A DNA stretch of 64,000 nt from NCBI GenBank assembly GCA_016748015.1, contig JAAOMT010000441.1, forward strand, positions 449,128-513,127. Direction: 5' to 3'. Position numbers and translations under genes: made by a program. Below, one piece after another: positions 7,701 to 9,168 of this stretch; within the stretch, counting starts at the first letter, position 1, and the number at the start of each line of letters is the position of its first letter. The notes under the pieces are model-generated. The model was not told the origin of the DNA, did not search any database, and saw only the letters and a program-made list of their open reading frames with translations. Origin of the DNA: Geosiphon pyriformis uo1. Its lineage: Eukaryota; Fungi; Glomeromycota.

Positions 7701-7731
7701 TAACTGTCTCTCCAGAATGAGACAAGATTAG
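1791..7731 (+). pseudogene. gag-PR-Cys-rich-dUTPase-RT-RNase H polyprotein of copy 1
   Basis: ORF pieces 2457, 3243, 3876, 4605, 4956, 5286 and 5817 share one frame. Motifs: capsid IPEFNG..WL; knuckle CHYCxISGxWxRDC; PR ILDSGSA; dUTPase [71 protein letters not shown]; ends SRMRQD-TAG. Many nonsense codons and one frameshift near 6447. Confidence 0.92.
5500..5900 (+). pseudogene. dUTPase domain within Ty3 copy 1 polyprotein
   Basis: All five trimeric dUTPase motifs recognisable: VGYDL, ASRSSLA, GGII(N)AGYTGDI, KIA(Q>stop)AI, RGIQGFGSTG. Confidence 0.92.
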
Positions 7732-7783
7732 AAAAACACAAAAACCAACACTCAACTTAACCAACCAAAAAAGCCAACAAACA

Positions 7784-9168
7784 ATAAATTCGAAAAACTA
7801 CAATGATCTCAAACAATATTTGGAAACATTAACAATCCCAACAGATTGGTCTTCAGAGGAAAAACATCGACTACAACAACAAGCCAAACAATATTTTCTA
7901 CACAACAACATTATTTATTACCGAAATTTCAAAAACTCAGACAAACCACTCAGATTAATACAAGAACAGGAAAAAGAAACTATATTATACAACATGCACT
8001 CAGATCCTTCATCAGCCCACTTCAGAAAAGACAGCACCACCCAAAGAACACTAGAATACTACTTTTGGCCTCAAATAAGAAAAGACATTCACGAATATGT
8101 CGAATCTTGTGATAGTTGTCAAAAAAGAGGAGGAACTTGCCCTACAGAACCTTTAAATCCAATCAAAGTTGAACAGTCTTTTGACAGAGTTGGTATCGAT
8201 TTAGTCAGACCACTACCTATCACAAACCAAGGAAACCACTACATTACAGTAGCCGTAGACTATCTCACCAAATAGCCTGAAGCCAGAGCCATTCAATGGG
8301 CAGATGCAAAATCAGTAGCAAACTTCATCTACAAAGACATCATTGTAGACATAGATGCCCAATAGAACTTTTATCTGATCAAGGAACACATTTCATGAAC
8401 AATTTAATCTAGGAAATTTGTGGACAATTTAATGTCAAGAGACCATTATCTTCATTCTACCATCCACAAACAAATGGACTGGTAGAATGGTTCAACAGAA
8501 CATTGTGTGAATCATTAGCCAAAGTTTCAACTGATTTTGAGCAAGAATGGAATCTCTTTATTCCATCAGTGTTACTAGCATATAGGACACTAAAACAAGA
8601 TATCACAAAACACACACCATTTGATTTAACTTACGGAAGGACGGCAACATTACCAATTAGTTTCACAGTGGAAACATACCCAGTACAACCAATCAATGAA
8701 AACAATTTCCAAGAAACGCTTCAACAAAGAGCCTACACTCTGCTTAGCACATTGGAAGAAAAACGACAAATAGCAGCCACTCATATTGAACACTCCCAAG
8801 CTCAACAAAAAGAATGGCATGATGACAAATTGCCTCCAGTCACCAATGAATTTAAAATTGGAAACAAAGTTCTCTTACATAGAACTAAAGCCGAAAAACA
8901 ATAAAATGGAAAATTTGAAAATAAATGGGATGGACCATTCTTTATCCATGAAGTTTTAGGCAACAGATCATATAAGCTAAGACTTGATGACAAAATTCTA
9001 GCAAAAGTTGCACATGGAGATCGTTTGAAACACTATAATTCCAGAAACAATTCTGAACTATTAATTCCACAAATTGGTACACATTTCCCTTTAATCAATT
9101 CCAAAGACATTCCCCAAAATTTAGAACCAATAGTTGTCATTGAACAGCCTCACAACTTGAATACTTAA
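7784..9168 (+). pseudogene. Integrase of copy 1 (separate ORF; start ATG mutated to ATA)
   Basis: HHCC (HSDPSSAH...CDSC), D (RVGIDL), D (LSDQG), E (GLVE), GPF motif (WDGPFFI). 1-nt deletion near 8343. No chromodomain. Confidence 0.9.

Follow-up and report, generated by a model that had tools for sequence, protein, structure and literature searches.

In retroviruses and in the LTR retrotransposons that have been studied, integrase (IN) reaches the particle within a Gag-tethered polyprotein. Two decayed LTR retrotransposons in a 64,000-nucleotide stretch of Geosiphon pyriformis uo1 (the window; contig JAAOMT010000441.1, positions 449,128 to 513,127, forward strand) show a different layout, with a stop codon between RNase H and IN and a separate frame for IN. 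Is this split a lesion of two dead copies, and if not, how is IN translated? LTR elements make up 41% of the G. pyriformis genome (PMC11952901, in excerpt).

Both copies lie on the forward strand and have LTRs of ~1 kb in direct orientation, which enclose Gag, a protease motif, an insert, dUTPase, RT, RNase H, IN and a third ORF (ORF3), in this order. Copy 1 extends from its 5' LTR (749-1743, end approximate; 93.6% identity to its own 3' LTR) to its 3' LTR (9978-10952). Its gag to RNase H region (1744-7731) is decayed, with stops and a frame change near 6448, and the protease was assigned by its DSG motif, without a Pfam match. The IN ORF (7784-9168) is decayed as well, and ORF3 (9290-10009, 239 aa) is intact and belongs to no known family. 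Copy 2 is bounded by LTRs at 14702-15681 and 23304-24283 (95.2% identity). Its gag, protease, insert, dUTPase and RNase H part (15682-21066) is decayed and has an assembly gap at 19795-20368, before RNase H. The IN ORF starts from its own ATG (21116-22501) and encodes a zinc finger, core and SH3-like end with two internal stops; ORF3 (22616-23335) has one early stop. Additional premature stops were found in the RT-RNase H part of copy 1 (three) and in the RNase H part of copy 2 (four). Repeats of 4 bp flank each element, ATGC in copy 2 and CTGT in copy 1, the latter likely a 4-bp target duplication. A cysteine-rich insert of ~300 aa lies between protease and dUTPase (4407-5276 and 17888-18886), with no Pfam match in the copy 2 frame, which was the one scanned.

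Pfam placed RT_RNaseH upstream of the stop and Integrase_H2C2, rve and a weak SH3_Tf2-1 downstream of it. Direct LTRs with a target duplication, the order Gag-PR-RT-RNase H-IN and a Ty3/gypsy-type IN are all present. IN is not located inside a Pol polyprotein as is usual for Ty3/gypsy (62 of 62 scorable metagenome relatives have the stop and a separate ATG), and the elements are therefore a variant of that superfamily. They resemble yeast Ty3 in the LTRs, Gag and PR-RT-RH-IN order, and Ty3 Gag-Pol is the best solved match of the IN profile (7Q5B, E 1.4e-51). However, Ty3 IN is made inside Gag-Pol (PMC4974528, in excerpt), whereas here it has an ORF and an ATG to itself, and a third ORF comes after it. 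Among fungal gypsy elements, PosPlaTy3-5 of Postia placenta likewise has a dUTPase between protease and RT, but is described in the excerpted text of PMC2864245 with one or two ORFs (Gag-Pol, or Gag and Pol) and no separate IN.

The junctions themselves were confirmed as the sequence-only reading had given them. RNase H of copy 1 ends in ATG AGA CAA GAT TAG, with the stop at 7729-7731, four codons past the D-x-L-S-R motif; a 52-nt spacer (7732-7783) leads to ACA-ATA, the ATA starting at 7784. In copy 2, ATG AGG CAA GAT TAA (stop at 21064-21066) is followed by 49 nt (21067-21115) and ACA-ATG, the ATG starting at 21116. Both copies have IN in the +1 frame, which is open from 7721 and 21056, respectively. 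The spacers are A/C-rich and contain neither ATG nor GT. That of copy 1 is ~61% A with a single G and no predicted structure, and that of copy 2 is ~57% A and essentially unstructured. Both copies fold a short hairpin that ends 5-6 nt upstream of the stop, but in neither window copy was this region more stable than shuffled sequence (z -1.1 and -0.2). Note that an in-frame ATG 12 nt upstream of the stop would create a four-codon mini-ORF with the same stop (7717-7731, 21052-21066); this ATG reads ATA in ~27% of host depth.

Further copies of the family were read in contigs from a single DNA run, possibly the one from which the window itself derives; 382 pieces lie on the copy 1 junction. At 7784 these host contigs carry ATG (G at 7786) in 35030 of 36807 depth (95%), indicating that the ATA of copy 1 is a minority decay change. 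For the stop at 7729-7731 they list no variant. A 1-nt deletion at 7732 accounted for 19858 of 49393 depth (~40%, 7 contigs) and a 3-nt spacer deletion was present in 5 contigs; the contigs are short, and compensating changes are not fully excluded. Two host pieces across the spacer fall short of the reference stretch by 2 and 4 nt, with gaps at unlisted positions. At the copy 2 junction, gaps of 2 nt and 1 nt occurred in 3 host contigs each, a net change of 3 nt if they co-occur.

Since both window copies are decayed, they could not exclude a lesion by themselves; their relatives do. A protein search with copy 2 IN, restricted to targets of 244-777 aa, returned as its best 120 relatives proteins of 359-438 aa, 119 of which begin with Met, mostly in the motif M-D-x-x-x-Y aligned to 21116. 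Owing to the length limit, this search alone was unable to reveal fused forms. A complementary search looked for RT-RNase H among longer proteins. Within the best 120 of these, 69 end no more than 45 aa past RNase H, 13 carry a long tail that is not IN, 29 continue into IN and 9 are unclear (5 truncated, 4 fused without an RNase H end). Matches of the split type include named proteins of Rhizophagus and Dentiscutata. Four odd fused proteins (P0150, P0152, P0161 and P0196) are Rhizophagus clarus gene models that skip the junction. They have lost the D-x-L-S-R motif, and L066, the DNA locus nearest to them, has the split form, with stop and start overlapping as UAAUG; the introns in these models are thus probably false.

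At the DNA level, 80 metagenome loci were fetched by IN alignment, 18 of which had no detectable RNase H end and were dropped. The other 62, scorable on both sides, were all split and none was fused. Among the genome-contig loci L083-L111, 2 were split and 10 fused, 15 had no RNase H, and 2 were dropped with the IN start unaligned (L096, L100); L112-L162 were weak matches (E 5e-10 or worse) and were left out. Together with the two window copies, the 62 metagenome and 2 split genome-contig loci give 66 junctions. An unbroken IN frame of 386-451 aa was found in at least 44 loci, with IN identities to one member as low as 41%. Viral contigs yielded just 2 weak IN matches. In-frame fusion of RNase H to IN in relatives, which the sequence-only reading had named as the sign of an inherited lesion, was thus absent from the metagenome loci (0/62), and a single fused protein, P0201, nests in the clade. 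Several loci of fungal type (L083, L084, L085, L094) sit in bacterial genome records, including Candidatus Glomeribacter gigasporarum, and are probably host or bin contamination. A subgroup (L039, L060, L067, L073, L083, P0142, P0173, P0178, P0214) has a non-integrase tail of 160-400 aa between RNase H and the stop. Farther upstream, some loci change frame between Gag and Pol or just before RT (L021, L025, L032, L035, L066), and others have an in-frame stop before RT after an acidic stretch, possibly read through (L063, L070, L077, L078, L094).

In a tree of 95 IN sequences, made by a quick method with 16 near-duplicate or short loci left out and no named reference clades, all 64 split or IN-only rows and the fused P0201 fell on a single branch (SH-aLRT 100). 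Copy 2 pairs with L016, which has a 24-nt spacer and IN in phase 0. A FastTree phylogeny of RT-RNase H, built from independently chosen proteins, placed 88 rows without IN, P0201 and 8 unclassed rows on a single branch (95), with three further split rows just outside it at weak support. By these trees, the split elements form one Ty3/gypsy clade with one fused member, and P0201 may represent a re-fusion or a lost stop. The split is a real, lineage-wide variant of Ty3/gypsy organisation, and recurs in dozens of relatives, found in mycorrhizal fungi and in samples of soil.

We then compared the 66 junctions. The gap between stop and ATG ranged from -20 to +943 nt, and IN was in phase +1 in 37, +2 in 20 and 0 in 9. 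In a family of 12 loci (80% single linkage) with spacers of 77-98 nt, all three phases occurred. Nevertheless, an ATG was present at the homologous position in 65 of 66, the exception being the ATA of copy 1. The sequence-only reading had proposed that a variable phase with a conserved ATG would speak for a separate cistron, and this is what the junctions show. IN is thus almost certainly a separate cistron, with an AUG of its own downstream of the RNase H stop. Both this stop and the separate ATG recur beyond chance, whereas the 3n+1 spacing and the open IN frame were not kept in the relatives. Three long spacers (L046, L073, L083) were rejected as products of broken RNase H tails; their true gaps look like 129, 61 and 102 nt.

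Stop and start overlap in 25 of the 66 junctions, at -20 (2), -11 (5), -8 (9), -4 (AUGA; 8) and -1 (UAAUG; 1). The clustering of starts around stops was modestly above a shuffle null (26 seen against 15.7 expected, of 59 rows that are not independent). The longer spacers avoid ATG. In 37 spacers of 11-210 nt, 3 ATGs were seen, compared to 32.9 expected from base shuffles and 21.9 from dinucleotide shuffles, so that the path from stop to start is nearly free of AUG, as scanning demands (3 against 22-33). After clustering at 70%, 3 were seen against 14-18 expected. The three ATGs are confined to L078 (206 nt, 2 ATGs) and L094 (117 nt, 1 ATG), both of which misfit scanning. TGA and GAT, permutations of ATG, are common in the spacers. 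Upstream of the stop there was no avoidance in 45 short-tail loci (~2.5 ATGs per 100 nt); outside one family, the ATG-free zone therefore begins at the stop. In the exceptional family, comprising 15 related loci, it extends 60 nt into RNase H (1 ATG in 900 nt). The IN start context is good, with a purine at -3 in 54 of 66 (background 49%) and G at +4 in 47. Spacers of 74-98 nt in L005-L014 (most), L017, L018, L020, L026 and L028 are unstructured and share three GAY-centred motifs ~12-13 nt apart and a TTGA-TTAAC-like motif; a motif resembling the latter occurs in the copy 2 spacer at ~21088-21097.

Based on these sequence patterns, we lean towards termination-reinitiation as the route by which IN is translated, in the window family through scanning of an unstructured spacer, on the model put forward for LINE-1. 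Ribosomes on the full-length RNA would terminate at the RNase H stop and restart at the IN ATG. In the window family, some 40S subunits would stay on the RNA after termination and scan across the 49-52 nt spacer until they meet the first AUG, on the lines suggested for LINE-1 ORF2, whereas in relatives with overlapping stop and start, restart would occur on the spot, as in victoriviruses and SART1. Reinitiation accounts for the overlaps, for the absence of ATG from, in most cases, the stop onwards, and for the tolerance of phase. Restart would yield less IN than Gag-RT. Gag through RNase H is a single frame in several intact relatives (L029, L039, L060), and there low-yield restart would set the IN dose, serving as dosage control where Gag and RT share one frame. 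The mechanism may differ between subfamilies.

Known systems offer precedents for both modes. LINE-1 has two long ORFs on one RNA with a short spacer (63 nt, compared to 49-52 nt here) and a proposed scanning step (PMC5972666, in excerpt). However, LINE-1 is a non-LTR element, its split lies between ORF1 and ORF2 and not within Pol, and its mechanism was examined experimentally, whereas ours is read from sequence. The overlaps of the relatives, including AUGA and UAAUG, resemble those of the victorivirus HvV190S, the hypovirus CHV1, caliciviruses and SART1. The same excerpt reports restart at overlaps in fungal victoriviruses and hypoviruses, and the use of structure downstream of the stop by SART1 (PMC5972666); HvV190S and CHV1 show that fungal ribosomes are capable of stop-restart. 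TURBS-type restart requires stop and start within ~20 nt and declines past ~30 nt (PMC10275272, in excerpt). The window junction is non-overlapping and, at 49-52 nt, beyond this distance, while 27 of 66 junctions (-20 to +19 nt) lie within it. The TURBS motif UGGGA (the fungal 18S loop may differ) occurred within 100 nt upstream of the stop in 1 of 66. The lack of conserved upstream structure, the scarcity of UGGGA and the window gap thus count against restart of the TURBS type. Against reinitiation in general stand also the modest clustering of stops and starts, the two misfit loci L078 and L094, and the ATG-free zone that enters RNase H in the family of 15. An ATG-free, A-rich stretch of 50-100 nt with a good start context also looks like a 5' UTR, and the excess of phase +1 persisted after clustering (14 of 23 clusters with spacers of 11-210 nt; binomial p 0.006).

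The 5' UTR-like look leads to the main rival, that IN is a separate cistron on its own capped subgenomic RNA, driven by an internal promoter near the RNase H end, with the spacer as its 5' UTR. The A-rich, ATG-free, unstructured spacers and the good start context would suit such an RNA, and shorter transcripts are documented for Ty elements (PMC4974528, in excerpt). The 15-locus family speaks for it: ATG avoidance there reaches 60 nt into RNase H, NAT-G occurs 0 times against 15 for NAC-G, and sequence-only motifs are retained ahead of the ATG. However, in the 26 loci with overlap or near-overlap, ATGs are frequent upstream of the IN start (2.5 per 100 nt, the nearest at 7-69 nt), and a subgenomic RNA would need its 5' end very near the AUG. 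The AUGA and UAAUG overlaps would be left without a reason, and 14 relatives keep an element ahead of the ATG as RNA pairing and not as a DNA motif. On balance, we regard a subgenomic RNA as unlikely, though deserving serious consideration.

This RNA element bears on a second rival, internal ribosome entry at the spacer independently of upstream termination, with an A-rich leader in the window and a structured element in some relatives. A 40-nt two-stem element, with an 11-nt purine-rich bulge and an 8-nt loop, lies directly ahead of the IN ATG, ending 3-28 nt upstream of it, in 14 loci (L036:3762-3802, L039, L043, L050, L053, L056, L060, L061, L062, L067, L071, L073, L076 and L084). Pairing holds in 97.9% of cells, and changes on both sides occur in 7 of 11 pairs. 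Compared to 500 shuffles, the element exceeded all in paired cells and covariation score but not in the count of covarying pairs (70/500); note that the structure was derived from the same sequences on which it was tested. An Rfam scan of 10 loci, four of them carriers, gave one chance-level match and none at the element. Such an element just ahead of the IN AUG speaks for internal entry, and the window spacer is CAA-rich and nearly G-free, a composition that may resemble the omega-type leaders of plant viruses. On the other hand, a covariance model found no match in the window; among 93 sources it recovered 14 strong matches, all model members, and a weak one in L046, and the element pattern had no match in viral contigs. 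The 25 overlapping loci have no spacer for ribosomes to enter, and structure downstream of a stop can equally serve reinitiation, as in SART1. These points render internal entry improbable, more so than a subgenomic RNA.

Splicing could also deliver IN, either by joining a leader to an acceptor ahead of the IN AUG or by removing the stop and fusing RT to IN. The annotation of P0150, P0152, P0161 and P0196 as fused across the junction agrees with this, as does a TTAAC motif, presumably branch-point-like, in both window spacers and one family. However, the R. clarus models lose the RNase H end including D-x-L-S-R, and their closest relative is split by the UAAUG overlap. The window spacers lack GT, and inspection of the spacers found no conserved splice acceptor ahead of the IN ORF: AG is absent from 13 of 36, and none is placed at -2/-1 of the ATG. 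Splicing is thus very unlikely.

The sequence-only reading had offered two mechanisms, initiation at IN's own AUG and a shifty-stop +1 frameshift at GAU-UAR. The first agrees with the phase and ATG data, while the second, which would fuse RNase H to IN at least in the host's family, is largely refuted and scarcely credible. In its favour, IN is in an open +1 frame in both window copies, and no phase is commoner than +1, also by cluster. Yet neither a constant phase, nor an open downstream frame, nor a conserved shift site was found. An IN-frame stop lies at or past the RNase H stop in 14 of the 21 non-overlapping +1 junctions, leaving 7 of 66 open; 29 of 66 are in other phases; and GAT directly precedes the stop in 6 of 66. 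Moreover, ~40% of host depth has the 1-nt spacer deletion, two spanning contigs lack 2 and 4 nt, L016 as the nearest relative is in phase 0, and a conserved ATG would be needless. Finally, the view that two dead copies inherited stop and frame change as a lesion, which their many stops and the fused P0201 inside the clade might suggest, is refuted by the 62 split relatives, the intact IN frames and their divergence.

Made by reinitiation or otherwise, a free IN would need its own route into the particle. It might enter by binding RT, or the genomic RNA that encoded it, by analogy with foamy virus Pol, which is made without Gag and packaged in another way (PMC3705302, in excerpt), namely through bridging RNA (PMC3196705, in excerpt). 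In foamy viruses, however, the whole of Pol is expressed apart, from a spliced RNA, whereas here IN alone is separate and no conserved splice signal was found. A successful clade without Gag-tethered IN would mean that the tether is dispensable. Two questions become testable: how eukaryotic ribosomes that have finished a very long ORF restart 0-100 nt further on, and how integrase without a tether locates particle and cDNA. The series of junctions, with overlaps, bare spacers and a structured element, constitutes a natural reporter set. For annotation, pipelines that expect a single Pol frame would call intact split elements broken, and gene predictors appear to span the junction with introns. 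A search of the open-access literature in PubMed Central and bioRxiv found no report of a clade of LTR retrotransposons in which IN has an ORF to itself. The comparison also brought out the avoidance of ATG in the spacers, the two-stem element that covaries ahead of the AUG in 14 relatives, and ORF3, a third ORF conserved downstream of IN.

Of the best 120 relatives of ORF3, one was the protein of the window itself and the other 119 carry the name Geosiphon pyriformis; the ORF (9290-10009, 22616-23335) is high-copy and annotated as many hypothetical host genes in this species. A homologous ORF follows IN in 21 of 44 examined loci with intact IN. Window ORF3 matched the profile of the relatives' ORFs weakly (E ~2e-6, small set), consistent with remote homology. 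No Pfam family was common to the members, no PDB sequence matched, and the L036 homologue had no usable Atlas match. The predicted model is a confident helical domain (pLDDT 93), for which Foldseek returned nothing from PDB or the viral structures at E 0.001. The stretch between IN and ORF3 avoids ATG weakly (21 seen against 32 expected in 22 gaps with noisy start calls), and we therefore do not claim the same mechanism for ORF3. A pyrimidine tract ahead of its ATG might be a splice acceptor. By analogy with the CaMV transactivator, one may speculate that ORF3 acts in reinitiation, or else in packaging. A broader picture, which we put forward tentatively and with considerable doubt, is a whole old clade of fungal LTR retrotransposons that work as polycistronic RNAs encoding Gag-Pol without IN, IN and a conserved third protein. 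Reinitiation would be tuned in several independent ways, by overlaps, A-rich scanning spacers or the two-stem element, and IN would be packaged free, possibly with the third protein as transactivator or packaging adaptor.

The remainder of the window contains decayed LINE-like elements at 10897-13046 (minus strand; endonuclease match 10897-11730), which copy 1 adjoins, and at 45748-52472 (plus strand; RNase H match 50505-52145). A 330-nt exact duplication at 1893-2522 around a 20-N gap (2203-2222) is probably an assembly artefact. Likely host genes encode a LEA/apolipoprotein-like repeat protein (29126-30580, minus strand) and an ABC1 atypical kinase (55697-56896, plus strand).
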